Of a stretch of DNA of 54,855 bases, positions 2,846 to 31,492 are shown in pieces; within the stretch, counting starts at the first letter, position 1, and every line of letters starts with the position of its first letter. The stretch is taken from contig CAUYUJ010000208.1 of NCBI GenBank assembly GCA_963575745.1, positions 62,001-116,855 of the forward strand, read 5' to 3'. The notes under the pieces were generated by a model. That model was not told the DNA's origin. It searched no databases and saw only the letters and a list, made by a program, of their open reading frames with translations. The position numbers and the translations under genes are program-made. The stretch is from Prorocentrum cordatum. Lineage: Eukaryota.

Positions 2846-3849
2846 GCCACCGGGCCCGGACCACGCTGGTCTTCTTCTTGCAGGCCGTCGGCGCGCGGCC
2901 GCCCCGCACAGAGGTGTAGTCGCACTGCAAGTTAATGATAGGCAGCGACGCGGCCTCCTCCTCCGTCAGCTCAAAAACGCATCGCTGGGCCGCTCCCTCG
3001 TCGCCCGCCGCCGCGCGGAACGTCCCGGCTCTCGCGTCGTAGACGGGCCAGTCGCTCGCGGCCGGCGTCACGTAGTACTTCGCGTTGCCGGAGCGAGGCT
3101 GCGCCGCGGCGGCCCTGCAGCTGGCGCACGCGCCGCAGTGCACCACGCGGCCGGACTCGCTGGCGCCCGGGGGCGTCGACGGGCTTGCCCCAGTGCCAAA
3201 CGCCGCTGCACTGCGTGCACGCGACCCATTCCGCCCCGGCCACCGCCGCTGCCCACTCACCGGCGTCCACGCACGCAGACCGAGGTGCCAGGCGCCGGGG
3301 GGCGGCGCGCTCCATCGCCGACGGCGGCAGGTCGCGCCCGCCGGGGCAGGCCGCGGCGGCGGTCTCGACAGAGAGCCCGTGGCCGCCCACGGCCCAGTCG
3401 CGCTGCGGCGGCCGCAACGAGGGCAGAACGTCCAGGACCCGAGTGCCATCCAGCGCCGGCCTCGGCGAATGCCGTCGGGCGCCTCAGCATCCTCCGCGGG
3501 GCCTCCGCTCAGCTCCTCCACCGGCCTCGGCGGGCGTCCAGCGCCCACAGCGAAGCAGCGGTTCGATTCGGTCAGCCAAGTCGAGGCGGCGTCGGCGCGG
3601 CGCGCCCGACGCGGTGCCCGCGATCGCCATCGGCGCGGCCCCCTCGGCATTGCACTGGAGGCGCAACTCCCGCGCCCGGCGCGCGCTCAAGCCGAAGTCC
3701 CTCCTCAGATCGCTCGGGCCAGCTCCGTCCCGTACCGCTTCGGCGACGCGTGCGTGGTCAGCAGCGCTGAGCGTGGCCCTGGTCGCGCCGGCTCGCACCG
3801 CTTGGGCGACGCGCGCGGTCAGTCGGTCTGGGGTCAGTGGCGCGGCGCA
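2846..3849 (-). pseudogene. Frameshifted N-terminal part of the Rep-helicase gene (third HTH-like repeat plus CxxC zinc-finger-like motifs)
   Basis: Protein-like segments switch between frames: ATLSAADHARVAEAVRDGAGPSDLRRDFGLSARRARELR, WTFCPRCGR, WVACTQCSGVWH, HCGACASC, YYVTPAASDWPVYD...LPIINLQCDY. The last shift lies in a (CG)n run at ~2836-2847. Confidence 0.7.
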
Positions 3850-4240
3850 CTGTGGTGAGCGAACAGCCGAGGCACGAATGCTGTCTCGCGGGCACAGCAG
3901 CGAGGACGCGATGCGCGTGCGTCCGCGCGCCCCGCAGCGAGCGCGTGAGGTTGCGAGGGGCGCTTCGCCGCGAGGCGACGACACGCGAAACGCGAGAAAG
4001 ATGGAGCCGCGGTTTTGTCGGATGCGCCGCGGCTAGGTCGCCGCGGAGGGAGCGCACGCGAGCGTTCACCGCGGCACCGGCCAGCCTTGCCGCGCACAGG
4101 AACAGTCATGCGTGGCGGCTAGGCCGCCGCGGAGGGAGCGCGCGCGACCCGTCCGCGGCGCCGACCAGCCTTGCCGCTCGCAGGTTCCATAATTGTTTGC
4201 GGCAGGCGGGGCGCCCATCTTCCTGTGGGCGCGTTTCGCC
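3850..4240 (+). repeat. Split direct repeat A1 (391 bp)
   Basis: Appears identical to 13933-14323 (offset 10083). Confidence 0.95.
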
Positions 4241-5808
4241 TGCCGTTTCGGGCCCTGGCCCCGCGGCGTTTCGCTCTGGCCCCGTGTCCCTGGCCCTTTC
4301 TCTCTCGCCCTTCTGTCCTTCGGTGTCCTCCCGCCCCCTCTCGCGCCTGGCCCTTTCCCCTCTGCTGCGCTCCGCTCTCGCCCCGGCCCGCCTCTTGCCT
4401 CTCGCCCCGCGGCCCGCCGCCGGCCCTGTTCTCGGCCCCTCGGCCTCCCGTTCTGTCCCGCCGTCGGTCCCTTCGCTCGGTCTCTCGGTCCTGCCGTCCT
4501 CCCGCGCGCCGGTCTCCGCGCCGTCCGCCCCGCCGCGCGTCGGCGGGTCGCTCGCCCTCCGCTTCGCCCGCCGCGCGCGCAGGTTCCTCCTCCTTCTCCC
4601 GCGCGCGCGCAGGACAACCGCGGCCCCGCCGAGGCGGGCGGGCCGCGTTGGCTCAGCGCGCGCAAGACCAATCGCGGCCCCGCCGAGGCGGGCGGGCCGC
4701 GCTCTCGCGCGCGTGCAGATTGATTTCGACCCGCCGAGGTGGGCGGGCCGCGCGATGCGCCCAGGCCGAAGGGCGCCCCGTTCTGGCCCCGTCGCCGCGT
4801 CGTCGTGTCGTCGTTGGCGCGTCGCGCCGCCGCCGCCGCCGCTGCTGCCGCTGCGCCGTCGCGTCCGTGTCGCGTCGGCTCGTCGTGCTCTGTCGCGTCG
4901 TCGTCGGGGCGTCGTGCTGCCGCTCGCCGCTGCCGCCGGTGTGTCGCTGCGGCCGTCGCCGTCGTGCCCGCCGCCGCCGCTGCGGTGGCCGCCGCCGCCG
5001 CCGCCGCTTCGTGTCCCGCTTCCGCTTTGGCCCCGGCGGGGCCTGCCCCGGCTCCGGTGGGGCCCGCTCCGGCCCTGGTGGCGTCCCGGTCCCTCCCTGG
5101 GCGCGGTGCTCCGCTCCTTCGTCGCCTCTGCTGGACGCGGCTCGTTTCGCGGCGGGCGCGCTGGGTCCCGGGCCGGCGCCCCGCCCGCTCCTCGTCGTTT
5201 TGCTTGGCTCGAAAGTTCTTTTCTGCCCATGGTCGGGCATCTGCGCAAGTGTGCGCACGGGGCTCGTGGACTCGCGGCAGGAGATCTGGGTTGTTGTGAC
5301 ACCCAGACTACCTGCTGCAAGTCCGCGAGTACCCACCCCGGCGCCTCGCGCCCGCAACTGGCGGGCAGGCGGACCGCCGGGGACATCCGTACCTGCGTTC
5401 GGCTCGTGTCGGTCGGCCCGGATCGGCCCTGGTGCCAGGCCGGCCCGTCCGGACTCCTGCAGAGACGGCGACTCGCGTTGCCCGTGCAGTCCCGGTCGAG
5501 CGCGCCAGACGCAGCGCGCGCGCGACCAGGTCGATGTTAAAGTCGCGGCGCCAGCGAGCCCGTTTCCCGCAGTGGCAGATCTCGTGGAGGTTGGGCTCGC
5601 AGCGCGCCCCAGCAGCGGCCGCGGCGGTGCGCGGTAGGACATGGAAAAGGATTTAGACGGCTTGCGCCAACCAGGCAAGGGAGATGTGGAGTGTGATCGG
5701 GCCCATCGGGGATCACGCTGACTCCACTAGCGTCGGCCCACTGAGGCCAGGACACGGCACGACCAGGCAAGGTGGCGATGCCCGGATCATCATCTCCGGG
5801 GGGCGCTC

Positions 5809-6410
5809 GGCCCACTGGGGCCCCGCCCGCACCGGCACGTTCGATTGAACGTGACCGGTGGGTCCACTGGGACCCCTTCAGGGAGCAGCGTGCACGCCCA
5901 TGTTGGCTTTGCCCGTACCGGCGCGCTCACTGGACGCGACCGGTGGTCCACTGGGACCCCTCTCCCTCCGCTCAAGGGCTGCAGGCAGGCCCACTGGGGC
6001 CCTGCCTGCACCGGCGCGATCGATTGGACGTGTCCGGTGGGTCCACTGGGACCCCATCAGGGAGAAGCGAGCAAGCCCACGTTGGCTTGCCCGTACCGGC
6101 GCGCTCACTGGACGCGACCGGTGGTCCACTGGGACCCCTCTCCCTCCGCTCAAGGGCTGCACGCAGGCCCACTGGGGCCCTGCCTGCACCGGCACGATCG
6201 TTGGACGTGACCGGTAGGTCCACTGGGACCCCTTCAGGGAGCAGCGAGCAAGCCCATGTTGGCTTTGCCCGTACCGGCGCGCTCACTGGACGCGACCGGT
6301 GGTCCACTGGGACCCCTCTCCCCCCCGCTCAAGGGCTGCAGGCAGGCCCACTGGGGCCCTGCCTACACCGGCACGATCGTTGGACGTGACCGGTTGGTCC
6401 ACTGGGACCC
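5809..6410 (+). repeat. Tandem array (~180 bp period, ~3.3 copies) with about 10 CCACTGGG cores in the retrotransposon leader
   Basis: Units start at ~5810, 5990, 6168 and 6346. Most cores read GGTCCACTGGGACC (5-bp stem, 4-nt loop). Confidence 0.9.
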
Positions 6411-6946
6411 GCTAGCCCTATGTTCTCCCAGGACGGCCTTTTGGTGGCCCCGCTCCTGGGTGACAGTGACGCGCCAAGGCCTGGCGCCCCGTTCGGGGCA
6501 GCGGACACCCGGCGCGAGCTGCGGGAGCAAGCGGCACCGACAGCTGAGAACGACGGACGGCCGGCGGCTCCGGCGGACGGTCCGGGCGGGGCGGTCCGGC
6601 TCGCTTACGAGGCTCCGCCATCCCGCCCGCCCCCCCCGCTCTCCGGGGCCCGCGTGTCGGGATTCGTGGCGCATGCGTGATCTCGCGCGCAGGCGGACTC
6701 GGGCCCCGTTACCGTTCCCGTCGCCGGTCGCACGTCGGTTTCTCCGAGGCTTGCATTCGATCGTGCTTCGTGGCGGCTTCGCCGTGTCGGCCTCGGCCTC
6801 GTCTTTCCCGAGGCTCTCGCCCACCCGCCGACCCGCCAGTCCCGGTACCTCGTGTTCCGCGAACGTGCGACAGAGCGAGCCGCGCCGCGCGGACAGTGCA
6901 GCGGACTCCAGGTTTCCCTTCGTTCGCCGCGCAAACAATTGCCGCC

Positions 6947-8465
6947 ATGGAGGCGGCCGCTGCCTTGCGTTTCTTTCTCAAGAAGCATGCGATGGCGACA
7001 GGGGCTCCAGACCCGGACACATGGCTGAATGACATGGTCGCGATTCTCGACCGAGCGGAGGCACGTGTCCGCCGCCCGCGCGCGCGCTCCCGCTCCCGCC
7101 CGCGCGTCCGTGCGCGCGATCCGGCCGTCCCGCGCGGCCACCCGCGCGAGCGTCCCGTGCAACAGGTGTACACCCCGCAGGCACTCGTGTACGTCAACAC
7201 AAAGAAGATTGAGATCTCGCCTGGAAAGGCTCACGCCCTCGACCAGGCTATACAGGCAAGCGCGCGCCCAGAACCGCCGCGACGGTCGCCCTGCGACCGC
7301 CGCCGTTCAGGCGGCGAAGAAGGAGTTCGCACCTGCTGGGACCACCGCGCCTGCCGGGCCAGCGGCACCCGCAGCGGACCCGCTGGCGGAGCTCACCCGC
7401 ATCCTCACCAAGGATGACGCCCCGACGGTTCACGTCGACTTCCAGGCGCAGCTGAACGCCATCACCCTGGCCAACTTGCCCACCGCGGCGTGGCCCAGGC
7501 GCGCCCCCCCCCCTCCCAGCCTGTTTCGCCGGTCCGCGGCCGCCCGTCCGGCCGCGTCGCGTCAGGACCGTGCGCGTCGATTCCCTCGCATCCGAGGTCG
7601 ACCGCCTACAGAAGAAGAAAGGGCTTGCCGCCCCTTTTGTCAACGTCGACTTGCGCCTGTGGCTTCCCACGGGCGCGTCCGCCGTCGGCCGCCCACATGA
7701 CGACGATGCCACCCAGGCGGGCGCGGGCGGCGGGGCCAAGCCTCGCCTGATGAATTGGACCGAGTGGCACCTCGCCTTCGACCAGTACCTCGCTGTCCCG
7801 CCCGCCGACCGTACTCGCGGACCCTCCTCGGCGGCGCAGGTACGCTCTGGCCGCTGCCGCAACGAAGCAGCTCGACTTCGCCGCGGCACTCGCACACAAG
7901 CAGATCTGCCTCCTGGCATCTTGCCGCGCGCGCCCGCGCGCCCTCCGGCCAGCGGATTCCCCGCTCGCTTCGCAGGTAGCGGCCCACGCCCAGCTCAAGG
8001 GCCGCAAAGCCCACCTGGGCGTGTTCTACGACCAGGTCGCCCGCCGCTCCTGGGCCGAGAAGGCCGCCGCTGGCGTCACAGGTTTCCAGGCCCGCCACCC
8101 CGCTCCGCCGCGCGCGCCCGCGCCCCGCCCCCCCGCCGCGGACCTCGGCATCGCAGGTGAGTCAGGCGGCCCTCGCCCTCGACGAGGTGCTGCTCCGCCA
8201 GGCGGAGCGGGAATACGATTTTGACGAGAAGAGCCTCGGCAGCGCCCCCGCCGCCACGAAGCAGGAGGGAGCCGGTCCGGCCCGAGGCCCGGCGACGCCC
8301 AAGCGCAGCCAGGCCCACCGTGCGGGCCATGGCCTGACCGCCCAGCAGAGTCAGCAGAGTCAGCAGGGCAAGCGCAGGGCCGACACCGGGGCCAAGACCG
8401 GCTCCTGGAAGAGCTGGAACAACAAGAGCAACGGCGGGGGCGGCGGCAAATGGCAGCGCCGCTGA
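6947..8465 (+). CDS. Gag-like ORF1 of the YR retrotransposon, 7 exons (~369 aa spliced)
   Basis: GCCATGG start. Proposed introns 7061-7165, 7256-7310, 7499-7565, 7785-7839, 7916-7975 and 8090-8156 give one continuous frame with WTEWHLAFDQYALAAAATKQ...HKQICLLVAAHAQ...LGVFYDQVARRSW and a basic C-terminal tail. The Gag call rests on position and on resemblance to YR-element ORF1 motifs. Confidence 0.75.
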
Positions 8466-8698
8466 TCAGCGACAGCGCGCGCCTGACGGGCACAGCCGTC
8501 AGCACGGCGCGCGGAATTTTGGGCTTGCTGCTAATTAGAGCGTCCGACGCGGTAAAGGGTCCGAGGCGCACCAGGAATGCGCGGGCCCCGCCCTCCCTCC
8601 TGCGCCCTCCACGGCGCCCCCCTCGCCCTCCACGGCGCGCCCCTCGCCTTGGCGCCCCCCTCGCCCTCCGCGGCGCGTGCGTTCAGCTTGCTTTCGCC

Positions 8699-11338
8699 AT
8701 GAAGCGCTTTCGCGAGCACGCGAGCCCGGACGAGCCGGCTCCCAAACGGTCTGTGTCTGATGCTCGCAAGTTGTCTTTCGCCGAAGCGGCCGCCCTCGAA
8801 GGCGATGCCGGCTTCGAGCCGGGCTGCAAGCTTTCGCAGGACACTTTGGCGGCGCTTGAATGGATGGCATCGAGGCCACCCGAAGAGGCGCCCAGGTGCG
8901 CGCGCAAGGCGACCGCGCGCCACGACCGAGCGCAGGTAAGGGAGGAGCGTGAAGGGGCTGTTCTGCGGGTCCTCTCCATGGCACATCAGTTCAGGACGGC
9001 CGGATTCGTCGAAATCTGGGGTCGCGGCGCGGACCCGGGCGTCGCCAACGTAGCATCCGGCGTCAACGGCCCGCTCTTCGAACGCCTGGTCGCCGATGTG
9101 GACTTCCACGACCCGAAATGCGTTGACTTCTTCCGTGAGGTGCAACGCGCGAGGGGCGGCTCTGCTTCTCGCGCCCGACGGAGCGCGGCCGGCGAAGGGT
9201 GCACCGCTGATTGGGACACTCGAAAAATCCGGCACGGGGACGGAGATGGCGCATAAGCCGCTGATATCAGCGGAAGAGATCCTTCGAGGCCGGCGCGCGC
9301 GCGCGTCGGCAGGGGCCCGGCTTCTCCTCCCTGGCCCCCCGCCCCGCCGCGCGCCAGCCAATGCACGGGACAGAAAAGCATTGTTCAAAAGGACACGGCC
9401 AAGCCCGTGCGACGAAGCGCTGCACGAGGGCGCACTCGCCGACGCGAGCGCGGGGCGATTGACGACGCCCCGGCGACTGAGCCCCGACGACGTGCCCCCG
9501 GATGCCGCGGTAATCCCCCGCTTCGGCGTGGAGCAGGGGACGCGGCCGGACGGCACCGCTAAGGTACCCCGACGGCCGCCCGCGCCGCTCATTCGCGGAC
9601 CGCCGCCCGCGCGCCAGGTGCGCGCCGTAGACGACTGCAGCGCGGCCCACCTCAACAAGGGTACGGAGCCGCAGGAACGGATGAAGCATGACACTGTCGA
9701 CGCGCTGTTTGACGCGTGTCGGAAATTGGCGCGACGCGTTTCTCGGGCCCCGACGCCGCGTGCGCTCTGCCCTGTTCAGGCACCCCTGGGGCCCTTGGAG
9801 CTCTTCAAGGCCGATATTGATTCCGCCTTCCGCAGAATCCCCTTGCGCCCGGAGCACCGACGCTTCGCTTGGGTCATCTATTGCTTCGCCGGCGTCACCT
9901 GGGGAGCCCAGCACGTTGCCCTCCCGTTCGGAGCAGGCCCGCGCGGGCCATCCCGCCCCACCCGCCGCCCCGCCGCGCGTCGCGGCGCAGTCAGCAGCGT
10001 ACACAACTGGGAGAGAATCGGCGCGGCCCTAGTGGCCATCTGCAGGCGCCTCTTGCGGATCCCAATCCTGAGGTACGTCGACGATCTGTTCGGCGTCGAG
10101 CGCTCCGGGGAGGCCCGTCTCGCTCTGTCCCCTCCCCCCCTTCCGTCGCACCCGGTCGACCCTCTCCGCGCTCGCGCAAAGGCCCAGCACGCCCTCTCGT
10201 GCGTGGTCCGGGTGATCAGGTGCATCCTGGGCCCTACGTCGGTGGCCGATAAGAAAACTGAGTCGGGCCCGTCGCTCGTGATTCTCGGACTAGCCATCTC
10301 GGTGCACCGCGCGCGACGCGTTCGCGAATGGGGGGCTAGGGCACTGTGCGTGCGGTGTCGCAGACCTCACGCAAAGGGCTGATTGCGCGCCCGTCCAAGG
10401 ACAAGGTCGACAAATGGACGAACCGAATCAGGACGGCGCTTGACGACGGTTCGATGACCGCAGGCGCGCGCGTGATCGCGCGCCGCGCGCGCCGGGGGCG
10501 ACACCTTTCTTTGCACAGGTGGGGCCGCCAAGCTCGCGGGCGCGTTGTCGTGGGCGGCGTCGTGGCAATTCCGCAAACTAGGCCGTGCGATGCTGCGGCC
10601 CTTGTTCGCCCACGCACACTCGGGGCGTCCGTTTCTACCGCGCCCCGCCCTGCGCAGCCTGGCGTGGTGGTTGGAAGTGTTGCAGAGAAGCGTTGCAGAG
10701 ACAAGGGAATGGGAGCCCGCGGACACCCGCCCGCCGGTCCTTGCCTTCGCTGACGCCCGGGGCGAGCCCCCACGAGCGGCCGCCGTCCTCTGGATCGACG
10801 GACGTTGGGAATACACAGACCAGATGCCGCCGGCCTGGCTAACGAGGCCCCGATCGCGCGCCGGCGACCGATCGATGCAATTCGGCCTGCGCGCAGGCAA
10901 TTCCAGCAGCGGAGCGACGATCAGATCGCCGGACTCGAGATGCTCGCTTCGGCCTTGGCGATCTCCACCTGGCAGAAGGAGCTCCGGGGCCGCAAGGTTC
11001 GCCTCTTTAGCGACAACACGATCGCCGAATGGTCGTTCCGAAAGGGATCAGCGAAGTGCTGCGACCACGGGGCCATCGTCCACCACTTCTGGTCGGTGAT
11101 CGGGCTGCTCCAGATCAACCTCCGGATCGACCGTGTCCCTTCCGGCGGGCCCGCGCGTTATCTCTGTCAGGTCGGGTCCCACTCCCGCGGCGCGCCAGTT
11201 GATAACATTTCTGACCTGCCCAGTCGGGAGGATTATGATCTCATGACACGCATTGGGGCCACCTGGAGGCGCCCGTGGCTGCGGCCAGAATTCTGGGACC
11301 TCCAGCTGCCATGCCAGCTCGCGGCCCGTCCCGTCTGA
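8699..11338 (+). CDS. Reverse transcriptase-RNase H, 12 exons (~671 aa spliced)
   Basis: RT motifs KADIDSAF, LPFGA and RYVDD; RNase H motifs AFADARG, IAGLE, FSDN and DNISDLPSR. Introns 8888-8935, 9140-9197, 9289-9357, 9564-9617, 9729-9779, 9937-9990, 10113-10181, 10302-10363, 10464-10518, 10847-10896 and 11145-11198 each match an insertion relative to the intronless homologue at 26211-27948/38024-39503. Confidence 0.92.
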
Positions 11339-11427
11339 GCGCTCTCGCGGCCTCGCCAGTGCTCTCCTTCCCCCCGCTCCTGCTCTCCCGCCCACCCGTC
11401 ACCCCGCGCTCGCTCGCGCGTAGCGTC

Positions 11428-11910
11428 ATGCGGCAAGTCTGCCCCCGCCCCGAGGGCATTTTCAACGTATCCATGGCGCGCGATCGAACACCGCCGCGGA
11501 GGTGCTGTTACGTTCGGCTGATCCAGCGAGCGCACACCGCAAGTCATCTCGCGAAGGTCGCGGCGCATTCCCTTTTCAGGAGCGAGATGCGGCAGCGCGA
11601 CACGGACGCGGCGGCCTCGTGGCTGCGGGGCCGCGGGATCCGCTCGTGGTTCCAGCTCGGGCGGCTTCCCGCGGATTCAGTGCCGTCCCTGGGCTTGGCT
11701 AGGGACGCGCGCGCGACGATCCTCCGGGCCATCCAGCTGGCCATCGAATGCCGACTGGACGAAGCACTCTGCACCTTCGGCACGGAACTCGAACCGGAGT
11801 CCAGCTGCTCAAGCAGCGAATCTGATACCATCGACTATCGCACGACGATGGTGGGCGCGCCGCAGGGCGCGGACGTCGATGACGACCCAATCGAAACGAC
11901 GTCGCCTTAG
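11428..11910 (+). CDS. Additional small ORF between RT-RH and YR, with a SAM/HhH-like helical motif and an acidic tail (possible in-frame intron 11476-11556)
   Basis: AAASWLRGRGIRSWFQLGRLPADSVPSLGLARDARATILRAIQLA followed by an acidic, Ser-rich tail. The ATG is preceded by a TAG acceptor-like site. Confidence 0.55.
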   Translation: MRQVCPRPEGIFNVSMARDRTPPRRCCYVRLIQRAHTASHLAKVAAHSLFRSEMRQRDTDAAASWLRGRGIRSWFQLGRLPADSVPSLGLARDARATILRAIQLAIECRLDEALCTFGTELEPESSCSSSESDTIDYRTTMVGAPQGADVDDDPIETTSP

Positions 11911-12105
11911 CCGCGCCGTCACCGGCCAGCGCCGGTCGCTCCCGCTCGACCCCGCGCAAGGCTCGCATCAGAGAAAGAGACGCGAGCGCCGCCCGGGAAG
12001 GCGCGTCAGTAACGCGGCACGAACGCTCTCACACGCGAAGGGGGCTATCGAGAGGCGCGCAGGGCGCGGGGCGACCTCTCTCAACGCGCCCCTCGGCGCG
12101 CCAGA

Positions 12106-13677
12106 ATGAAGCTCGCCGACCAGATCGCCGTTGCGACCCCGTGGGCGTCACCCACGGTCGTTGAGGAAGTCGCCAAGTTTCTGGTTTCTTGCGATGTGTT
12201 CGCGATCTCATCTGTGCGGGCGGTTGGCGCACCGGAAAACTGGAGCGGCTACGTGAATCTGTCGCCCGACGCGCAGCGCGCGATCGCGCTCTTCGCGCGA
12301 GCAAAGCCGCCGCCGGGCCCGCCACCTGCGGCGGCGTTCGTGAGTGACGAGGTGCCTGCGGCGCCCGTGTGCGCTCAGCCGTGTGTCTCCTCCGCCGCTG
12401 GCTCCTCCTCTTCCTCCTCGTCCTCCTCCTCCTCCTCGTCCTCCTCGCCCCCCCCGCGGGCGGGTGGTAGGAGTCCAGCCGCGCAGGCACCCGCACGCCC
12501 GCAACAGGAGGGCGTACTCTCGCAGCGGCTGCAATTAGCGCGGGCGACGGCCGCGCTGAAAGCGTCGCCCCTGGGCTCGAGAAGAGGAGGCCCGCGCGCC
12601 GCAATTCGACGCCTGGCCGTTGCGCCGAGCGACCCCGAATTCAGGAAGCGCGCCTTATTCGGGGCCCGGTGCGCCGCCGTCCTCAACGGTGCCCCGCGCT
12701 CCATCGGCACGTGGACAGCCGGCCTGAGGTGCTGGTTCCGTTTCGCCAAATCGCAGCTCGGAAAAGGGGACAGCCCCCTCCCGCCAACTGCGGACGAGCT
12801 ATGTCTTTGGGCTTTGTGCTTCTCGAACCCCGGCACTTTTGCCAATTACAAAGCCCAGGTCGACAAGGCCTGCACGCTGCTGGGCCTCGACCGCTCAGCG
12901 TTCAGCAGCCCCGCCGTTTCGCGCGCAAAGGCCGCGATCAAGCACCGTGCGCCCCAGCCTGACCCGCGACCTCCCCCTGTCACGCGGAAGGCGTTAGTCG
13001 CGATGTTGCCGCACGTGCCTGACCCTCAGGTGCGAGCGCTGTTCGTAGTCGCCTTCGCACTGGCCTTGAGGCTTCCCTCGGAGGCGCTGTTGATCAGCAT
13101 AGGCGACCCAGCACGGGCGGCCAACTTCCGGTTCACGCAGGAGGAACTGGACCGCCCAGTGCCGACCATCGTGCTTTTCAACACGAGCGAGGCGGTCGTA
13201 CTCCACCTCTCGAGGCGAAAGCATAAGCCCAGGCCTAGCGAAGTCAGGCGCTCGTGCTGGTGCAGCATCTGCACCGCGACCTGCCCAGTGCACGCCCCGC
13301 GCGCCCTACTGGGCGACCTCGCGCCGGGTGCGTCTCCTTTTGCCCACCTGGCAAAGCCGACCAGAGCCGGGCGCGTGCTCCCCGTGCCAGCAATTACCCG
13401 CAACCTGCGCAGGTCGGCGCAAGCGGCGGGCCTCCCCAATGCCGCCCGCATCACCTCGAAGTGCCTGCGGCGCGGCCACACGGAGACTCTCCGCCAAAGC
13501 GGGGGGAGCCTCGCCACCATCTTGAGAGCCGGCAACTGGAGGTCCGGCGCATTTAAGGCCTACCTGGACCAGCCTGCCCTGGAAGACGCGGCGACGGGCG
13601 AGGGCATGGCCCTCTCCGCCAGCGCGGGCCCTGAGGCCGCGGGCCATGACCCCGCAGGCGCTGCATCTCAGCCGTAA
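12106..13677 (+). CDS. Tyrosine recombinase of the retrotransposon (523 aa, no obvious intron)
   Basis: ALRLPSE (Arg I), SRRK, CPVH, SKCLRRG (HxxR position carries K), AGNW and FKAY (catalytic Tyr at 13561-13563). Confidence 0.92.
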   Translation: MKLADQIAVATPWASPTVVEEVAKFLVSCDVFAISSVRAVGAPENWSGYVNLSPDAQRAIALFARAKPPPGPPPAAAFVSDEVPAAPVCAQPCVSSAAGSSSSSSSSSSSSSSSPPPRAGGRSPAAQAPARPQQEGVLSQRLQLARATAALKASPLGSRRGGPRAAIRRLAVAPSDPEFRKRALFGARCAAVLNGAPRSIGTWTAGLRCWFRFAKSQLGKGDSPLPPTADELCLWALCFSNPGTFANYKAQVDKACTLLGLDRSAFSSPAVSRAKAAIKHRAPQPDPRPPPVTRKALVAMLPHVPDPQVRALFVVAFALALRLPSEALLISIGDPARAANFRFTQEELDRPVPTIVLFNTSEAVVLHLSRRKHKPRPSEVRRSCWCSICTATCPVHAPRALLGDLAPGASPFAHLAKPTRAGRVLPVPAITRNLRRSAQAAGLPNAARITSKCLRRGHTETLRQSGGSLATILRAGNWRSGAFKAYLDQPALEDAATGEGMALSASAGPEAAGHDPAGAASQP

Positions 13678-13781
13678 TGCGCGCTCGTCGCGCCCTTCAT
13701 CCCGCACGCGGTAAGAAACGTCGCGACGTTGGCAGTGGGGGCGCGCGCACACGACGGCTGACGCCGGCCTGCTGTTGCATT

Positions 13782-13937
13782 GGGTTGTAGCAGCCAGGCG
13801 TCGCCGTCGAGGCGCGCGCCGCCACCGCCTTGTGCTCGGCGGGGGCGGCGCCGCCCGACGCGCCGCCGCACCCATCGCAGGATGGTTGCTGCGACCGCGT
13901 GGCGGACGCCGCAGAGCGCCGCGCCCGCAGCGCTGTG
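13782..13937 (+). repeat. Split direct repeat B1 (156 bp)
   Basis: GGGTTGTAGCAGCC...GCAGCGCTGTG, repeated at 14340-14495 (offset 558). Confidence 0.95.
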
Positions 13938-14323
13938 GTGAGCGAACAGCCGAGGCACGAATGCTGTCTCGCGGGCACAGCAGCGAGGACGCGATGCGCG
14001 TGCGTCCGCGCGCCCCGCAGCGAGCGCGTGAGGTTGCGAGGGGCGCTTCGCCGCGAGGCGACGACACGCGAAACGCGAGAAAGATGGAGCCGCGGTTTTG
14101 TCGGATGCGCCGCGGCTAGGTCGCCGCGGAGGGAGCGCACGCGAGCGTTCACCGCGGCACCGGCCAGCCTTGCCGCGCACAGGAACAGTCATGCGTGGCG
14201 GCTAGGCCGCCGCGGAGGGAGCGCGCGCGACCCGTCCGCGGCGCCGACCAGCCTTGCCGCTCGCAGGTTCCATAATTGTTTGCGGCAGGCGGGGCGCCCA
14301 TCTTCCTGTGGGCGCGTTTCGCC
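13933..14323 (+). repeat. Split direct repeat A2 (391 bp)
   Basis: Copy of 3850-4240; overlaps B1 by the 5 nt CTGTG. Confidence 0.95.
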
Positions 14324-14339
14324 CCACCCACATCCGCCC

Positions 14340-14495
14340 GGGTTGTAGCAGCCAGGCGTCGCCGTCGAGGCGCGCGCCGCCACCGCCTTGTGCTCGGCGG
14401 GGGCGGCGCCGCCCGACGCGCCGCCGCACCCATCGCAGGATGGTTGCTGCGACCGCGTGGCGGACGCCGCAGAGCGCCGCGCCCGCAGCGCTGTG
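14340..14495 (+). repeat. Split direct repeat B2 (156 bp), right end of the element
   Basis: Copy of B1, separated from A2 by a 16-nt spacer. Confidence 0.95.
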
Positions 14496-15715: not shown

Positions 15716-17074
15716 GCGCGGTGTCGAGGAAGCCCATGCGGACCTCTCGCCTCGAAGCAACGAACTATTCCGCGCGTGCGACGCTCCGCAATTCCATGAG
15801 AATTAACCGCCGCTGGGCGGTGTCCCTGCGACGCACAGGGACTCGCGTCTATTTACGTTATTATTCAAATCGCGTCTACAATCTGCTGCCAAGCAAAGAA
15901 ACGCGGCCCTGTCGGCGTGCTGCGCCCGCGCGCGCGCCATCCACATCCTGTGCGCCTCTCAAATCGCCTGCGGCGGCGAAAGAAAATCGCGACCCGCCCG
16001 TCGCGGAAGCGCGCGGCAGAAGGAGCCAGCGTGCCCGCGCGATCGCACCCAAATCTTTACACGTACAAGCGACGCGCAAACAGCGCGCGAAAACGGTCGC
16101 GGCCCCTCAACGTGACGCGCCGTCCCTCTCTGGCAGCGCGCTTGCCGCAGGGGGCATTCGGTGGGTAAGGGCGTCGCGTTTGGCAAAGACCGTCGCCCAC
16201 TCGCGCGAAGCTGGGAGACCGCGGAACCGATTTGCGCATCGCCGATGTCACCGCGCACGCGCGTCCGTTGAAAGGGGGCCCGATGCCGAGGCTGCATCGC
16301 CGATGCGTCCCGGCCGCGAAGATCCATATTGCTAACATGCGACGCGCATCGCCGATGCCATCGTGCGTCGTGTCGGATGACGGAGCGCAGCGCTGCAGAA
16401 GCATTTGAGAAGTGAGTCGTACACAGAATTGAAAATCCTCATAATTGCAGTTTTACTTAGTTTTTTGTTCTTTTTTTTTCTTGGTCTCCTTTGGGCGCTC
16501 TTTGGGTTCGTGGGCCCGCGGCTCATCCTAAAGCGCGCCTGGTTTGTGGGCCAGAGGCGTCTTCGAAGCGTGGTGGTCTCTCGGGATGCATATGGGACGT
16601 TTACTTGGGTGTCTGCTTGTACGTCAGGGCTCTTCAGGATTCATCTGCCTTCCTCAGGATGTATCAGTTTTCGGTTTTTAGGGACTGACCCAGGTGTTCT
16701 TAGTTTTCCTTTCAACTTCTTCAGGATTCCAGGATGTCTAAATATTCAATCGGATTCTGCATGTTTTCCTCATCCTCGTCAAGATAAATTTTCAGGTTGC
16801 CTTTGGGTTCCTCGGGATCCCACAGGGATATGCAGGACTTTCAAGGTTCAGTCGCACGTGCTCAGGACGTCCAGTTTCTTTGGGATATCGTTGGGTTGTT
16901 GAAACTATTGGGGGTTAGTCGGGGTGTTCCTGGTGCGCCGAGGATATAATTTGGTTTTCTTCGGCGTGGGGGGGCCATGCTATTCAGAATAGAACTCACG
17001 ATGCGTTTAAATCTTCGGGCAACTTTGACCATAAAAAGAAAAATAGCCATGCGTAGAGGATGCAGGATCTGATA

Positions 17075-19997: not shown

Positions 19998-22900
19998 ATG
20001 GGCAAAAAGCGTAGCAAATCGAGCAGTGGCCCAGATCACATTCAGAGCTTGTTGACTTCTGGCATGAAGGCGTATTATGGTAAAAGTGATGATATTAAAA
20101 AAGAAAGGGCTCAGATTCAGACGACGAGTCTGATGATTACATATATGAGGCAGAGATCGAGCTTCGATCACGCCACCGCAAGTACGACACACTAACGATC
20201 AAACAGGTAGAGTATATTATCCTGAATTTGAAAGGTGTCGGAATGACAGCAGAGGATCTCGGTGAGCTTGGATCCAAGAGTTCGTTTCACATGAGGCAGG
20301 TTCGAGGGACCATGATCAATCGTTACACAGACAGGAACAAAGCAAAAGAGCATAGCGAAGCATTGGCAAACTTTCGGACGACCCAGGGCTCAAATTACAA
20401 ACAACGGTGCCTCAAGCTTTTATGTTGTGCTCTGAACGTTCCAGCTTCAAAGCAATTCAGGGCAGATAAAGACACTACGATGGGGCACCAGATGACCGTG
20501 TGGCAAGAGCAGTGGAACAAGCGCAAGAATGACCGACCCTTTTTTGCTTGCACTGCCGCGTGCATTAGCGCAAATGCCCTCCCTCCCCTCAGGTCCCAGT
20601 AAATGATGTGGTGCTGCGTTCATTGTAGTGCGTTGCGTTGCGTTGCATTGTCGAGTGCGTTGCGTAAGCGTTCGCTACCCTGGGAAGTGCTGTGCGCACT
20701 GCGCCGCGCGAATGAACGTGCACTCGGCGATCAACACACTCAAACCGATAGTAAGATCGATAGTGATATTAGGAATGAGATCGATAATGAAACCGGTGAT
20801 TCTACCACTTGCATGGTCGATGGTATCGATAGTGGGATCGCTCGCATTGCCCTCTGCGTGTCGCTCAACGTCCACACCCCTCACCCGTTTGAGCAATCGT
20901 GGCTAGGTCTTGTCAGAAATGTGGGCATGCGGGGGGGGCAGAGGGGAGCAGGAAGTGAATGAGGGTGATGATGTGGATGAGGATGGTGAGGAGCTGGTGC
21001 CGTGGCCCGCAAACGTCAAATACGGGCCCTCGGCGGTCGATTGAGAACTTCAGTCCTCTGTCCTCGGCTCGATTCCCGCACTTTGGCCTCGGATCCTCGA
21101 CCCCCGAGTCTCGACCCTCAGCCTCCGATGCTCATTCACAGTGCATCGGCCCTCGCACTTCAATCATCGGTCATTTTGCTATGAGCCACGGGGTCCCGCA
21201 ACCAATCGCACTATCGATCCCAGTGCCGATCTCACTGTCAATCTGATAATCTCACTATCGATCCCACTATCGATTAGCAACATGATCAGCACCATTCTCG
21301 CCGTAGTCGTCGTCGTCGCCGTCGTCCTCGGCGCCCCCGTTTCGCCATGCCAATGTCTGGCCGCCGAGGAGGGCGTCCGCGAGGTGAAAGACATGTACGA
21401 GTCATTGAAGAGGCAGGCTGATGAGGACGTGGAGGGAGGGAAGGGGAGGGAAGAGGCAGCGGCTGAAAAGAGGAGCGTGCAAGGGGAATGGGAGGGGAGC
21501 GTCATGTAGGATTGTATCGAAGACGCCTACGGCGAATCATCGCCGCCCCCTGCAATTGTGGAAGCGCCTATGTGGCCGAACGTTGAGGCCAGACCTGCCA
21601 AGCTATCGGACCACGTGGCCCCCGAATCGGTTTGAAAAGCCTTCGGGGAACACGTGGGCATCTTGAAGGTCATCCTGGCAGCCTGGAGGCCATTTTGATC
21701 CTTTTCGGGCCTTCTTGGAGGACGTCTTGGGGGGCTCTTGGGCCGTCTTGGAGGCCATCTTCAGCATCTTGGAGTTCAGGGCAGGGGGCATCAGAAGCAT
21801 GGGGGTAACTCCACTTCGTGCCTCGTGGCGCCGTGGTGGGCATTGCAGAGTTGAAAGTAGGTTGGCATAGGGTGCACTAGAGTACGTGGTGGAATGCCTA
21901 GGGGAAGCGTTATCTAGCATGGAGTTGCGTAAATAACAGGTGTAGCATGTAGGTCAGAGTAGAGTAGTTCGAGCCTGAGTTGCGCGCGCAGCACAGGGTT
22001 AAGCTGAGGTGAGTAGACCAGCAAAGCAGCGCTTCGTGTAGATTGGGCGAGGTGGTCTAGACATGAGCACACCGTCGTGCATGCGCGCTGCCCAAGAGGG
22101 CCCGATAAGTCTCCAAGGCGGCCCGAGAGCGCCCAATATAAACGCCCAGTGGCCCCAAGAGGGCCCAATAGACCTCCAAGAAGCCACAGGGGCGCTCTAC
22201 GAGGCCACCCGAGAAGGTGCCAAGATGTCAAACCATTGATTTTTATTCAGGGTTCCTATGTGATTGGGATTCTCGCTTCTTCGTGCCTCGACGCTCCATG
22301 CCGGACATCGAGGCTCCGAACAGCGCCCTAAGGCGGACCAGGCAACCCCTAAGAGGGCCCCAACGCGGCCTAAGAGGGCCCCAGAGCGGCCCCTGAGGCC
22401 CACCAGACGGCCCCCAGAGGCCCACCCCAAGAGAAAGCCAAAAGGGGGAGCACAAAGCGACAGTGCAAGACACCCGCCAAACCGATGCCCCCAGGAGGCC
22501 ACAGGAGGCGCCCAGGAGACTCCAAAAGACTTCCAGAAGCCCACGAGGCCCCCAAGAGGCCCACAAAGAAACCCCTGGAAACGTCAAAACTGCCACCGAG
22601 AGGCGGCGCGCCCGCCAGCCCGCGCAGGAGCTCGCCAAGATGAAGTGCCAGCACCCGTGGTTGAAGAGTGCGCTCGCGGCCATGGAGAAGGCCAAGGCTA
22701 GCGACAACTCAGACATGAGCGACAGCGATCAGAACTCAGACGACATGTCGGACTCAGCTTGCAATGACGTGATCGGCTCGGCCGAGACGAAGAAGATGAA
22801 GATGAGGAAGGAGAAAGAGGACGGCTCTGTCGGCAAGAGCGACAAGCAGGATCAGACCCTTGTCGAAGGCCATCGTCGAAGCGAGCTGTCAGTGAAGGCT

Positions 22901-24980
22901 TGCAGCAAGGGCGAGAAGCACAATATCGACATTGGCGACAGGCTCAAGAAGGGCAACGACAGCAGGAGGGAGAAGAGCGGCGGCCAGAAGCGCGAGAAGG
23001 GCCACACCAGCAACATGAGGGAGAAGAAGCGCTGTCGCTCGGACTCGCGGCCGCGGTCAGCCTTTAAGCAGAACTTGAAGCAGCGGCAGCCGCTGCAGGC
23101 GGCCTCGGACGACGACGACGACAGCGACGACGCCGACGACAGCGCGGACAGCGACGACTCCGACGACAGCATGAAGCACAACGGCCGCCCACTCGGGAAG
23201 TACGCCAGCGAGCTTGGCGATGACACGAAGATACCAAAATGGATTGCCACCATCCAGGGCCTGAAGAAGCCCGACCAGCGTGCGCTGCAGCACCTTGCGG
23301 AGCATGAGTACATCGAGAACATGGATGGGGCGGGGCGGGCGAGAGAGCGGAGCATGTGCACAAGGAGACAGACTTGAGGATCAGGACGAGGACGCGAGGG
23401 TGGCGGAGGAAGAGGGAGAGAAGGAGGAGGAGGAGGAAGAGGAGGAGAAGGAGGAGAGTGGACAGAACGGAAGAGCAAGGGGAGAGATGGAGGAGGAAGT
23501 CGAGGGTCTCTGCGGACTCGCGTCTTTTCGACCCGATCCAGGATCGGGTCGGAACGACGCGAGTCCGCGAATACCCTTGCCCCGATCCTTTGCATCGTTG
23601 TTCGTTTGGCTGCTCGCGTCGGTTGGTCGTTCCAAGGGTGCTCAAAAGGGCGTCGGATGCCTCCGTGGCGCGTGGTCAGGTGAAGTTGCGTGCGCTTCAC
23701 GCGCGCGCGGCTTCACCTGCGGCGTGCATTTCGTGGCTTCTTGGTTGTCCCATGTGGTCACGTGTGTTGGACAGGTGGCGCTGGTCTTGCATTTGTATGG
23801 TTGCCCTGTGGTGTTTAGCATGTCTCCTCGTGCGTTTTTTTGGGGGTGCGTGCAGCGCTCGTTGGGGGTGGGGCGGGGACCAGGCGGAGTTTCACAGCTT
23901 GCTGGCCGTCTCGAAGTGGGACCCGACGAAGACCGCGAGCTACGCGCTCTTCACTACGTTGGGGAAGGAGTGGCTCGAGGAGCAGTGGTGAGCGAGGAGA
24001 AGCATCTCAGAGGGGCTCCACAGACAGGTTCAGGAGTCGAGGACGCAGGAGATCGAAGCGATTCGAGCACAGGAGCAGGCCATCAGGGCCCGAGAGCAGA
24101 AGAACGCAAAGGATGAGGCTGACAAGTTGAGGAAGCAGTTGCGCGCTGCAGAGGCGCGGGAGATGGCAGCGACGAAGCAGGCGTCACCAGAGGAGGCGGC
24201 CGACGGCACCAAGAAGGGCAAGAAAGGCAAGCCGAAGGCGGCAAAGCCAGGAGCAGGAGGAGGAGAGGAGCGCAAGCCTGAGCTGACGGGCGACGGCGGC
24301 CAGAAGAAAGCAAAGCACAAACACATCCAGGATACCCCATTGCCGTCGCTTGCTCCTGACGCCCGCGATGATGACGATGATGTTGAGAAGCATGGCGCTG
24401 AGAAGGATGACACTGAGGCTGAGTTGCTTCCCTGTTTTGTTGATTTGCATCTCTCGTGCGTTCAGGCAGGCGCATGGTCCTAGATAACAGTGGTTACGAT
24501 TTAGCGTGTTGCCACCAGCACATCCAGAAACGATGCATTGACAAGTTGGGGTGATCAGGGAAGTGGCTTAAACCACGTTCTCGCCCAGCCCCTCCCTCCT
24601 TCGAGGAAAGTAACACCCTCGCCCTACCCCGCTCCCCTGGACCTGGAGACTGGTCTGCTAGGTTGAAGCGTCCAAGGTTTCCCGCAACGGCTCCAAAACG
24701 ACATCGGACTGCAACTGGGCCTCCAAGATGGCCAACTACAACGCGCGCACGCCCGAGCTGCTTACAATATGCCCTAAGAGCCCCCAAGACCGCCCCCCCA
24801 GACGGCCACAAATGGTCAAAGAGCACCCCGCTGGAGGGCCATCAAGAGGCCCACGGTTTCATCAAAACCCAAATGGTTATCAATGCGTTGTGTCGCGTTG
24901 CCTTTTTGTTTGCGGTGACCCCTCCCGAGGCTTCAAGACGGACCCAAAGCTGCACGAGATAACCCCAACAGATGCCCCAG

Positions 24981-25033
<53 letters not shown>

Positions 25034-25784
25034 GAGACTGGCCCGCGAGCGCCCAGAAGCGCACCAAGAGCGCCCCGAGAGCTACCCAAGAGGTGCGCGT
25101 GGTTCTGGCTCCGATTGGGGGATGTGCGAAGGGGGGAGGCGGGGCGGGGGAGGGGGGTTGCAACGGGGGTGGGAATTGCAACCCTCCCCTCTCTCGGCCG
25201 ATGTCCTCCCCTCACCCGTGTCAGCATCATCCTTCTACTCATGGTCCGTCCCATCCTCCTCATGCGACTCATCGTCCGTCTCCCAGCTCCCTCATGCATG
25301 CGTCCAGTCTCGTCCTTCGCTTCCCTCATTTGCTCGGTGTGGCCGTCCCCTCATATGCCGCCCTGAAGAGTTGGTGAGACTTGTCATCAACGTGTCCGCC
25401 GTTGCTGTGTTGCTAGTGTGCAATGTTCGCTTGATTTGCATTGTGCGACGGTGGTTTGTGAGTTGCCGAGTGGTTGCAACGATTGCGTCCAGTGCATGTC
25501 TTGTGCCTACGATCGTCGTGAGCGCCTTGTCTCCCGCTGCGTTGTCGCAGGCTGCGGGCCGCTCCGATCGCCCTGCTGCTGGCGGGCGCGACGGCGGCGG
25601 TCGCGAGGCTGCCCGCGCCGCGCCCGAGCAGATCACCATAGGGGACGAGAAGGGCATCGGCGGCCTTGGCGTCGAGGCCCTCCAGAGCGAGCGTGACGGC
25701 GCAGATGATGAGGACGAAGAAGATGAAGATGAGGAGGGTGGCGGCCCAGAGGACGATCAGACAGGTGCAAAGCAGCCTAAGTGA
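19998..25784 (+). CDS. Multi-exon hypothetical host protein, charged and low-complexity; exon joins not fully resolved
   Basis: Coding-like blocks on one strand: ~19998-20150 (MGKKRSKSSS...), ~20207-20520, ~21360-21430, ~22628-23330 (ELAKMKCQHPWL...HEYIENMD), ~23883-24417 and ~25551-25784 (stop). The blocks are separated by repeat-filled intron-like DNA. Confidence 0.5.
24981..25032 (+). repeat. Poly(A) run, 52 nt
   Basis: Directly visible. Confidence 0.95.
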
Positions 25785-26210
25785 TGAGTGAACAATCGCC
25801 AGATATGTAGGTAGGACGTTAATGCTTGCAGCCAGTCCGTCTCATGGTGGGCAGAGGTTCTGGGGTTGCTCGCGCGCGAGGCCGCACGCACTTGTTGTGA
25901 TGAGTACGGCGCATAGCTCAGAACCGCACCGCTGACCCCGAACACCCCATCCAGAACCGATGCTCGCGAGATAGTCTTTGGCCACTCCTTGCTGGGGCCA
26001 CTTTGGGCGCTGCCACAGCGTGCCCCCCCAGGTAGGTGGAGTGAGGAGGAACATCACGTACAGAAAGGGTAGAAGGTGTGTGATGCAAGCGTTGGCCCAG
26101 AGGCCACTTTGGCCCAGAGGACTGGCAATTTAACCATCGCGTGCATTTTGCTCGCGACGGGATCTCGTGCCGCCAAGGGAGTGGAGCCTCGCTGCGCGAT
26201 GTGGCGCGTG

Positions 26211-27948: not shown

Positions 27949-28134
27949 CCGGCTCGGGCGCTGGGCGTGCGTGCAATGGATCTGGCCTTCACTCATCGGT
28001 CAGGGTGCGCCCGCCAGGTCGGGCAGGGGTTGGCGTCCTCCCTCGCGCACGTCGCGGTCGCGCTTCGCCTGTGGGCGCGCGAGGGCATCTCTGGTTTGTC
28101 GGCGCACCTGGAGAATGTCATCGGTGTTCGCGCG

Positions 28135-29760: not shown

Positions 29761-29875
29761 GCACCCCGCGCAGTCTGGTGGTCGTGTCTGCACGGCACAC
29801 ACGTGGGCGCACCCCCGGCACGCGGGGGCAGTGGGTGGCAGCGCCGGGCGTGGCCCGCGGGAGCGCCGTTGCAGT

Positions 29876-29961
29876 GGGTGGTGCTCCCCCACGGGCCCGA
29901 CCGGCGTCTGCCCGCTTGGCCTCGGAGAGGCCGCGCGCTGCGGGGCAGATGGGTCGGGTCC
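29876..29961 (+). repeat. Element 2 repeat B1 (86 bp)
   Basis: Repeated at 30439-30524. Confidence 0.9.

Positions 29962-31181: not shown

Positions 31182-31227
<46 letters not shown>

Positions 31228-31234
<7 letters not shown>

Positions 31235-31456: not shown

Positions 31457-31492
<36 letters not shown>

Follow-up and report, generated by a model that had tools for sequence, protein, structure and literature searches.

The 54,855 nucleotides (nt) analysed here (positions 62,001 to 116,855 of Prorocentrum cordatum contig CAUYUJ010000208.1, assembly GCA_963575745.1; hereafter the window) contain a full-length, complete Ngaro-type tyrosine recombinase (YR) retrotransposon of the DIRS order, 10.6 kb in length (3847-14495), whose gag-like and reverse transcriptase-RNase H (RT-RH) genes are interrupted by 17 short segments resembling spliceosomal introns. 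Most of these segments sit at sites where diverged relatives have introns, and from this comparison they appear to be inherited parts of the element lineage, far older than the insertion in the window. Intron loss is the textbook signature of passage through RNA, and the basis both of retrotransposition assays and of processed-pseudogene calls; to our knowledge, Penelope-like elements have been the accepted exception until now.

Introns in the gag and RT-RNaseH genes

Introns were located with a protein-to-DNA aligner written for this analysis, which permits gaps only as GY-AG and leaves the flanking bases unforced. The RT-RH of a second, intronless Ngaro relative in the same window serves as comparator, and its alignment to 8600-11400 opens 12 such gaps. 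A further 29 homologues from a protein collection search, mostly continuous metagenome open reading frames (ORFs) of 650-750 amino acids (aa) with several partial ones among them, were each aligned to 8500-11400; this gives 11 recurring RT-RH gaps, each recovered with between 14 and all 29 of the homologues; one of the gaps has ambiguous borders near 9729-9800. The six gag gaps were placed from the reading frames and from similarity to the relative L051, no intronless gag being available for comparison. A codon-bias gene finder was also tried and calls for a minimum of four frame-correcting introns per gene, with imprecise borders, and homology was used instead.

Designations beginning with L denote metagenome contig loci, those beginning with P homologues from the protein collection, and X6, X9 and X11 three other sequencing runs, represented by contigs; EL1 is the window element. 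In the following list, fractions give the number of homologues supporting each RT-RH intron.

26134-30524, + strand: intronless Ngaro relative (comparator), with RT-RH at 26134-27948, YR at 27949-29760, B1 at 29876-29961 and B2 at 30439-30524
6947-8465, + strand: gag-like gene, 374 aa, 7 exons (6947-7060, 7166-7255, 7311-7498, 7566-7799, 7840-7915, 7976-8089, 8157-8465)
7061-7165, + strand: gag intron 1, 105 nt, GC-AG, phase 0; same site in L051 (62 nt)
7256-7310, + strand: gag intron 2, 55 nt, GC-AG, phase 0, frame-breaking; same site in L051 (59 nt); spanned by an X9 contig
7499-7565, + strand: gag intron 3, 67 nt, GC-AG, phase 2, frame-breaking; same site and phase in L051 (60 nt)
7800-7839, + strand: gag intron 4, 40 nt, GC-AG, phase 2; a gap of ~40 nt nearby in L051, in another phase
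7916-7975, + strand: gag intron 5, 60 nt, GC-AG, phase 0; same site in L051 (53 nt, frame-breaking); spanned by an X11 contig
8090-8156, + strand: gag intron 6, GC-AG, phase 0, frame-breaking, 67 nt or, with an acceptor at 8165, 76 nt; same site in L051 (59 nt)
8699-11338, + strand: RT-RNaseH gene, 671 aa, 12 exons (8699-8887, 8936-9139, 9198-9288, 9358-9563, 9618-9728, 9780-9936, 9991-10112, 10182-10301, 10364-10463, 10519-10846, 10897-11144, 11199-11338)
8888-8935, + strand: RT-RH intron 1, 48 nt, GC-AG, 14/29; same site in L051
9140-9197, + strand: RT-RH intron 2, 58 nt, GT-AG, frame-breaking, 24/29; same site in L051 (47 nt)
9289-9357, + strand: RT-RH intron 3, 69 nt, GC-AG, 18/29; L051 intron 1 nt off; spanned by an X11 contig
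9564-9617, + strand: RT-RH intron 4, 54 nt, GT-AG, 21/29; same site in L051 (50 nt, frame-breaking); inserts in P0035 and P0039
9729-9779, + strand: RT-RH intron 5, 51 nt, ambiguous borders (alternatives 9738-9779 or 9762-9800); not in L051
9937-9990, + strand: RT-RH intron 6, 54 nt, GC-AG, phase 1, 29/29; same site in L051 (53 nt) and L013 (78 nt); inserts in P0032 to P0035
10113-10181, + strand: RT-RH intron 7, 69 nt, GC-AG, 27/29; same site in L051 (62 nt) and L013 (57 nt); spanned by X6 and X9 contigs
10302-10363, + strand: RT-RH intron 8, 62 nt, GT-AG, frame-breaking, 19/29; same site in L051 (60 nt) and L013 (65 nt)
10464-10518, + strand: RT-RH intron 9, 55 nt, GC-AG, frame-breaking, 22/29; absent from L051 and L013
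10847-10896, + strand: RT-RH intron 10, 50 nt, GC-AG, frame-breaking, 19/29; same site in L051 (64 nt); unrelated insert in P0042
11145-11198, + strand: RT-RH intron 11, 54 nt, GC-AG, 16/29; same site in L051 (61 nt) and L013 (53 nt); insert in P0042

The 17 segments are 40-105 nt long, eight of them are not multiples of three, and their removal opens frames of 374 aa in gag and 671 aa in RT-RH; as modelled, both genes need intron removal for their frames to be open. In sequence the segments look like spliceosomal introns, with donors that are GC in 14 cases and GT in three, a G before the donor in 16 of 17, and a CAG acceptor in 15 of 17. Within 6947-11338, where G precedes 28% of GY sites and C precedes 41% of AG sites, the probabilities of reaching at least 16/17 and at least 15/17 by chance are 2e-8 and 8e-5 respectively. 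The G+C fraction is 0.805 in the introns versus 0.658 in the exons. An all-versus-all comparison of the introns yields only GC-rich matches of 11-20 nt, and no further copies of them were found within the window. Gag intron 4 is the least certain of the 17 and the only one lacking a preceding G; it is the only GY-AG pair that joins both homologous frames.

These results bear out much of a first-pass annotation of this DNA, which had proposed six gag and 11 RT-RH introns, an exonic G before 16 of the 17, eight lengths that are not multiples of three, and no obvious similarity among the introns. It had also placed the RT-RH introns where the protein has insertions relative to the intronless homologue, and removing them does reproduce the three motif junctions it quoted. 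Two of its figures need revision: the length range of 48-105 nt holds at the upper end, but at the lower end gag intron 4 is only 40 nt if it is to be both GY-AG and frame-restoring, and the 13 GC-AG and four GT-AG donors become 14 and three, with the GC majority unchanged.

Five consecutive introns of the RT core are stop-free multiples of three, so that an unspliced open frame of 442 aa runs through 9054-10382. In-frame introns make up 9/17 in the window element versus 3/17 in L051, a difference that may have meaning or may reflect chance at 80% G+C. No spliced, junction-spanning protein of the window element was found in the protein collection.

Intron sites shared with diverged relatives

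L051 is the nearest to the window element of 79 related loci (see below), 6995 bp long with 71% G+C, and has the same gene order of gag, RT-RH and YR.

597-2009 of L051: gag
~2232 or 2472 (depending on the query) to ~4867-4909 of L051: RT-RH
5034-6790 of L051: YR

The spliced RT-RH of the window element is 55.3% identical to that of L051 over 657 aa, and its spliced gag model is open and 50% identical to the L051 gag region over 351 aa. There are 11 RT-RH introns in L051, and eight of 11 sites are common to the two elements at the exact nucleotide and phase, with a ninth displaced by 1 nt; the probability of this coincidence of eight is 4e-18 for random sites and 6e-10 if only G|G sites are considered. 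In gag, five of the six sites coincide exactly and the sixth nearly so. The L051 introns are all GC-AG, and their lengths and sequences are unrelated to those of the window element. Nine of the 10 L051 RT-RH introns in the first alignment break the frame, and seven of the nine in-frame introns of the window element have a frame-breaking counterpart in L051, which settles the intron nature of those seven.

Similar correspondences are seen with other relatives. L013 (54-55% identical) has four of the six sites within its aligned span in common with the window element. A search with the 9054-10382 frame gives P0032 to P0035, metagenome ORFs that are 44-48% identical and have unrelated inserts at the same places, as well as P0036, which has no inserts. 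In P0042, which is 84-86% identical to three exons, the reading frame continues across unrelated inserts at two RT-RH sites, P0039 (76% identical over part of the query) reads into an insert at one of the same sites, and contigs of X6, X9 and X11 cover intron-bearing stretches at 99% identity or above. The first-pass proposal that the introns predate the last transposition is thus strengthened by L051 (8/11 RT-RH and 5/6 gag sites), L013 (4/6) and the P0042 and P0039 inserts, and the outcome that it had named as refuting, intron gain after insertion and unique to this locus, is excluded by the occupancy of the same sites in relatives from other samples.

Correspondence is not complete. The site after TEPQ (coding site 747) is occupied in L051 (3295-3346) and has an insert in P0032 and P0033, and is empty in the window element, while coding sites 801 and 1300 (9729-9779 and 10464-10518) are occupied in the window element only. 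These single-site differences between relatives suggest a pattern of occasional loss or gain of single introns within the clade.

One further RT-RH exon homologue, P0055 (50% identical), lies on a 571-kb contig and is listed by NCBI as an unnamed protein from Prorocentrum cordatum, a dinoflagellate, the only named source encountered for the family.

Element architecture and terminal repeats

Self-comparison of the window gives the repeat order A1 ... B1 A2 B2, with the genes between, in a region of ~70% G+C. The remaining components of the element are as follows.

3847-4240, + strand: A1, 5' split direct repeat, 394 bp, 99.7% identical to A2
4241-6946, + strand: 5' internal region, 2.7 kb, very GC-rich, with a tandem repeat of ~178 bp at 5809-6410 (self-BLAST)
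11311-11910, + strand: ATG-started frame of 199 aa, overlapping the last 28 nt of RT-RH in a different frame
12106-13677, + strand: tyrosine recombinase gene, 523 aa from the first ATG, uninterrupted, 27% identical to the YR of the intronless element
13782-13937, + strand: B1 repeat, 156 bp, 100% identical to B2
13930-14323, + strand: A2 repeat, its first 8 nt overlapping the end of B1
14340-14495, + strand: B2 repeat, 156 bp, matching B1, 3' end of the element

An A1-[ORFs]-B1A2B2 layout defines the Ngaro-type YR retrotransposons in the available text of Hackl et al. (PMC8547959), and the window element is a Ngaro by these features and not a Penelope-like element, a Crypton or an introner. 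The split direct repeats, together with an RT-RNaseH fold modelled on the intronless homologue and a Cre-like fold modelled on the element's own YR (see below), uphold its first-pass identification as a YR retrotransposon.

The first-pass annotation had also described both repeat pairs as apparently identical, which is correct for B1 and B2 (no mismatch in 156 nt) and fails for A1 and A2 by a single mismatch in 394 nt, at 3849/13932. The near-identity of the repeats marks the copy as young and recently integrated, unless gene conversion homogenises them. The end of B and the start of A form an 8-nt word, GCRCTGTG, which is present at 3847-3854, 13930-13937 and 14488-14495, and thus marks the two outer termini of the element as well as the internal B1-A2 junction. 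The sole A1/A2 mismatch falls inside this word, and outside it there are 0 differences in 391 + 156 nt; GCRCTGTG may be the crossover core used by the YR.

The 199-aa frame has no Pfam family match and may be either an extra ORF or an N-terminal piece of the YR protein. No Pfam family matches either the frames that separate RT from YR or the long frames of the 5' internal region, and no methyltransferase, present in DIRS and PAT elements, was thus detected, although the absence of a match is weak evidence.

Predicted proteins

The gag product has no Pfam match, though it is placed upstream of RT as a Gag-like ORF1 would be. The spliced RT-RH model has no internal stop and is 46.5% identical (272/585) to the intronless homologue in the window; a YVDD motif is present and the RNase H acidic residues are intact, in agreement with the intact catalytic motifs of the first-pass annotation. 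Pfam matches are sub-threshold only (RVT_1, E = 0.006; RT_RNaseH, E = 0.0075, in one exon; Phage_integrase, E = 0.074, only on the intronless homologue), and searches of PDB sequences and profiles gave no match. Structural comparison is more informative. An AlphaFold2 model of the intronless RT-RH (predicted local distance difference test score, pLDDT, 84) has the RTs of HERV-K, CaMV, HIV-1, Ty3 and MoMLV as its top matches (E ~1e-13), and through this homologue's model the RT-RNaseH is predicted to have the fold of long terminal repeat (LTR) retroelements (retroviral/Ty3).

A model of the C-terminal 301 aa of the window element's own YR (12772-13674; pLDDT 76) matches Cre, XerH, Tn1549 Int and lambda Int (E ~1e-5). 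The third gene is thus predicted to encode a tyrosine recombinase of Cre-like fold, in place of a DDE integrase, and the R, K, R, W and Y residues are conserved in the YR alignment. The His of the His-x-x-Arg motif is replaced by Lys in the window element and by Lys or Arg in its clade, and is kept in the intronless element and in L015. The notion that an intron-free YR is the rule among intron-rich elements was rejected, as there are canonical YR introns at other loci (L076 and others).

Distribution among marine metagenome relatives

The 79 loci derive from a scan of metagenome contigs with an RT alignment, and represent the best 80 of 190 matches to the read-through frame, such that the intron-bearing share is biased. 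The intronless RT-RH was aligned to all 79, and gaps of up to 120 nt were counted. There are 332 such short gaps, 236 of which are frame-breaking or contain a stop; at least one frame-breaking short intron is found in 61 of the 79 loci and at least three in 42, while nine loci have no gap at all. The frame-breaking gaps have a median length of 58 nt (quartiles 55 and 61) and follow the canonical splice consensus at border positions that the aligner leaves free, with the following base frequencies.

G at -1: 0.83 versus background 0.25
A at -2: 0.57 versus background 0.22
G at +5: 0.64 versus background 0.31
C at -3 of the acceptor: 0.68 versus background 0.35
G after the acceptor: 0.79 versus background 0.27

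Intron carriage thus appears to be widespread in the clade and to extend beyond one element. Of 81 sequences, 18 were too short to be included, and the remaining 63, each with 380 or more aligned residues, were used for a maximum-likelihood tree, which was midpoint-rooted. Intron-rich and intron-free lineages interleave on this tree, and different clades share different sets of sites. One intron-rich member, L068, has eight canonical introns (GTAAGC, GTATGC and similar) whose G+C is below that of its exons.

Pairs of intron-bearing relatives keep their intron sites while intron sequence diverges, and their dN/dS ratios suggest that RT-RH is under purifying selection in these relatives.

L012/L014: dN/dS 0.09
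L018/L075: dN/dS 0.09
L047/L050: dN/dS 0.17 (very close pair)
L035/L055: dN/dS 0.33 (very close pair)

Several loci have features that fit multi-copy mobile elements. Four intron-rich loci, L019, L020, L074 and L077, terminate on the 3' side in B1/B2-type repeats. L015, whose gaps are few and weakly supported, holds two element copies in tandem (150-2882 and 6594-9326; 99.9% identical, period 6444). L050 and L071 have identical 141-bp end overlaps, as in circular or tandem assemblies, and L047 and L050 are 98% alike with differing ends.

Window neighbourhood

The intronless relative has B1 and B2 repeats of 86 nt that are 100% identical, and no A1 was found for it in 22000-33000. A segment of 1302 nt of its RT (26211-27512) recurs with 100% identity at 38202-39503; the copy region (37945-39503) has a longer N-terminus and a different 3' continuation, and is therefore rearranged or duplicated. 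The other features of the window are given below.

1-2931, - strand: 977-aa open frame running off the window edge, with matches to Helitron_like_N (below the Pfam cut-off) and an AAA_30/PIF1-type helicase; a Helitron-like element adjoining the Ngaro
15889-16269, + strand: third YR-like fragment, just downstream of the element, matching the YR of the intronless element at 32% identity over 127 aa
39576-54855: direct duplications, with units of ~5.4 kb at 41981-45526 and 47375-50942 (97%)
39576-42773 and 51623-54855: duplicate pair spaced by 12 kb (96%)
40035-41081: frame with a CPW_WPC domain, within the duplications
43400-44100 and 48800-49530: long CAT/CAC-rich repeats, within the duplications

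With regard to a virophage (EMALE) context, the ORF listing of the low-GC stretches of the window contains no long ORFs. The contig joints listed (8138 to 11085 in X11, side 21; 12173 to 12266 in X9, side 30) are weak and unrelated to the introns, and the joints from 14333, 14334 and 14339 back to 13782-13787 were dismissed, being only A2 running into B2. None of the 17 introns is removed by a listed joint, which carries no weight as evidence because contigs are unable to show absence.

Comparison with known systems

The closest described architecture is that of the four types of Ngaro in Cafeteria burkhardae (Hackl et al. 2021, eLife, PMC8547959), which have the same A1-[ORFs]-B1A2B2 layout and the same order of gag-like, RT-RNaseH and YR genes, likewise with no methyltransferase detected, in a GC-rich marine protist host. 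They are ~6-6.7 kb in length and drawn with continuous ORFs, in contrast to the 10.6 kb and 17 introns of the window element, and the Lys at the His position of HxxR is a further difference. The available text of that paper mentions introns four times, and none of these mentions concerns the Ngaros. DIRS-1 of Dictyostelium (Malicki et al. 2020, NAR, PMC7192593) is likewise a YR retrotransposon with gag, RT-RH and YR, although its terminal repeats are inverted and it contains an internal complementary region, where the window element has split direct repeats. According to the accessible part of that study, its circular or single-stranded DNA intermediate is closed via the internal copies of the termini, and its retrotransposition removes a sense-oriented marker intron, whereas the window lineage keeps its introns.

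Penelope-like elements (PLEs; Craig et al. 2021, MBE, PMC8557442) also keep introns after retrotransposition, which is described there as 'highly unusual among retroelements'. As presented in the available sections, they have a telomerase-like RT, a GIY-YIG endonuclease and pseudo-LTRs, and usually one or few introns, often in the 5' UTR. The window element differs in having 17 introns within coding sequence, and an RT of retroviral/Ty3 fold, a YR as its integration enzyme and split direct repeats lead us to reject a Penelope-like identity. Cryptons (PMC3212892, PMC13465315) are YR mobile elements whose genes can hold spliceosomal introns, but as far as these sources describe them they have no RT-RNaseH, gag or split direct repeats, all of which the window element has; the presence of RT-RNaseH and gag rejects this identity too. 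Introner elements (Gozashti et al. 2025, PNAS, PMC12130899) are common in marine protists and, by the portion of the article available, could supply new introns to any gene, including those of transposons. They are transposons turned introns with copies that are alike, in contrast to the window introns, which sit inside a transposon and share only the 11-20 nt GC-rich matches; an introner identity was rejected because the 17 are not copies of one family and have no further window copies.

No description of intron-rich DIRS or Ngaro elements was found in the open literature, although single introns may be mentioned in subscription papers; the word 'intron' does not occur in the available text of Muszewska et al. 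2013 (PMC3783388).

Proposed replication with introns

The comparative evidence supports the view that old introns have been kept through transposition. On balance we consider it probable that this is a full Ngaro-type lineage with genuine inherited spliceosomal introns, using spliced mRNA for protein and an intron-holding template for copying. The gag and RT-RH proteins would be translated from fully spliced mRNA, and each new copy would be made from a template still holding all of the introns; if the introns have been inherited as the lineage diversified, the copying template must retain them. The likeliest template would be a full-length sense transcript shielded from the spliceosome, either by nuclear reverse transcription or by early capture by Gag, and this would give rise to a circle with B2 joined to A1 that is integrated by the YR. 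Templates lacking one intron, now and then, would account for the site-by-site differences between relatives. We prefer this sense-transcript route because it would require no new enzymology, and it would require active protection of the RNA. A full-length sense transcript likewise escapes splicing in retroviruses; here it would do so with 17 introns.

Several points weigh against this proposal. DIRS-1, the only bench-tested YR retrotransposon, loses its marker intron on retrotransposition in the accessible account (PMC7192593), and the mechanism known for the family therefore predicts intron loss. With 17 efficient short introns, a fully unspliced sense RNA would be rare unless protected. In-frame readable gaps are in excess among the metagenome loci (96 of 332), and some of them are probably miscalled coding inserts. 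Intron-free relatives are both viable and near: the second element in the window and L002 have no introns, and L033 has none over the span shared with its tree neighbour L068, which has eight, at ~70% nucleotide identity in exons. The clade of EL1, L051 and L013 has its own set of sites and sits among intron-free lineages on the midpoint-rooted tree, such that many introns must also have been gained, which fits long residence as DNA; gains and losses are not separable with confidence on a tree rooted in this way. Whatever the route, the lineage behaves differently from what is known for its order.

Long DNA residence is also what would be expected if the element moved as DNA, with the YR excising a B2-A1-joined circle, or the circle replicating, followed by Crypton-like reintegration and with no RNA template. 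DNA transposons routinely keep introns, as Cryptons do in the available text of PMC13465315, the YR gene of the window element is intact and intron-free, and GCRCTGTG at both ends and at the B1-A2 junction is as a site-specific crossover core would look; the clade-specific site sets, implying gain during long DNA residence, point the same way. We nevertheless regard movement at the DNA level as unlikely, because an element whose RT is idle should lose the YVDD motif and the RNase H acidic residues, which are intact here, and the purifying selection on RT-RH that intron-bearing lineages retain (dN/dS 0.09-0.33), and because cut-and-paste alone gives no increase in copies. An antisense template would avoid the need to shield 17 introns from splicing: a full-length minus-strand RNA, lacking functional splice sites, would be copied, with the plus strand giving rise only to spliced mRNAs. 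Introns would then be neutral for replication and could accumulate and persist as they do in host genes, in keeping with the clade-specific site sets. Because A and B each recur near either end of the element, terminal redundancy would also be expected of a minus-strand transcript. No datum here favours an antisense promoter or transcript, however, and retroelement RTs usually copy their own coding RNA, which makes this route improbable.

Conserved intron positions between relatives are equally a property of orthologous host genes, and would be explained if the locus were immobile, a vertically inherited or domesticated cluster with host-like intron gain and repeats held alike by gene conversion. 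This seems quite improbable given the complete Ngaro layout, the absence of any difference in the repeats beyond the 8-nt core (391 + 156 nt), and the transposon-rich surroundings (Helitron-like helicase, second Ngaro, YR fragment). Contigs of the source run break every 0.7-2 kb at depths of 60 to 122, with 17 of 41 being less than 90% alike and thus representing diverged copies, and related intron-rich loci have tandem or circular-looking assemblies and differing flanks (L015, L050, L071, and L047 versus L050), all of which speak for mobility. Finally, the segments might not be introns at all, and instead be translated GC-rich expansions, debris of a dead copy, or gains after insertion. Nine of the 17 are indeed stop-free multiples of three, and the 442-aa frame at 9054-10382 reads through five of them, but eight are frame-breaking and at least four per gene must go. 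The splice consensus is moreover far above chance (P values of 2e-8 and 8e-5), seven of the nine in-frame segments match frame-breaking introns of L051, and occupancy of the same sites in relatives from other samples excludes gain specific to this locus; we therefore hold this last explanation to be very improbable indeed.

Returning to copying from an intron-holding template, a more general version can be offered tentatively, as plausible rather than probable: a large, as yet undescribed clade of Ngaro-like elements in marine protists would replicate from a template untouched by the spliceosome, be it a protected nuclear pre-mRNA, an antisense genomic RNA or an RT-dependent route that starts from DNA, with introns inherited, gained and lost as in host genes. 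The introns may even be selected, as a disguise that lets element mRNAs past host surveillance of intronless transcripts.

An element with a retroviral-type RT and a YR thus appears to keep ~17 coding introns across 45% protein divergence, and dozens of relatives in ocean metagenomes appear to do likewise. Elements of this kind will be overlooked or broken up by gene-calling and transposon annotation tools built around uninterrupted ORFs. The lineage offers a system for asking how a retroelement separates its messenger RNA from its genomic template, whether introns in transposon genes are protective, and at what rates introns are gained and lost in a mobile gene family.

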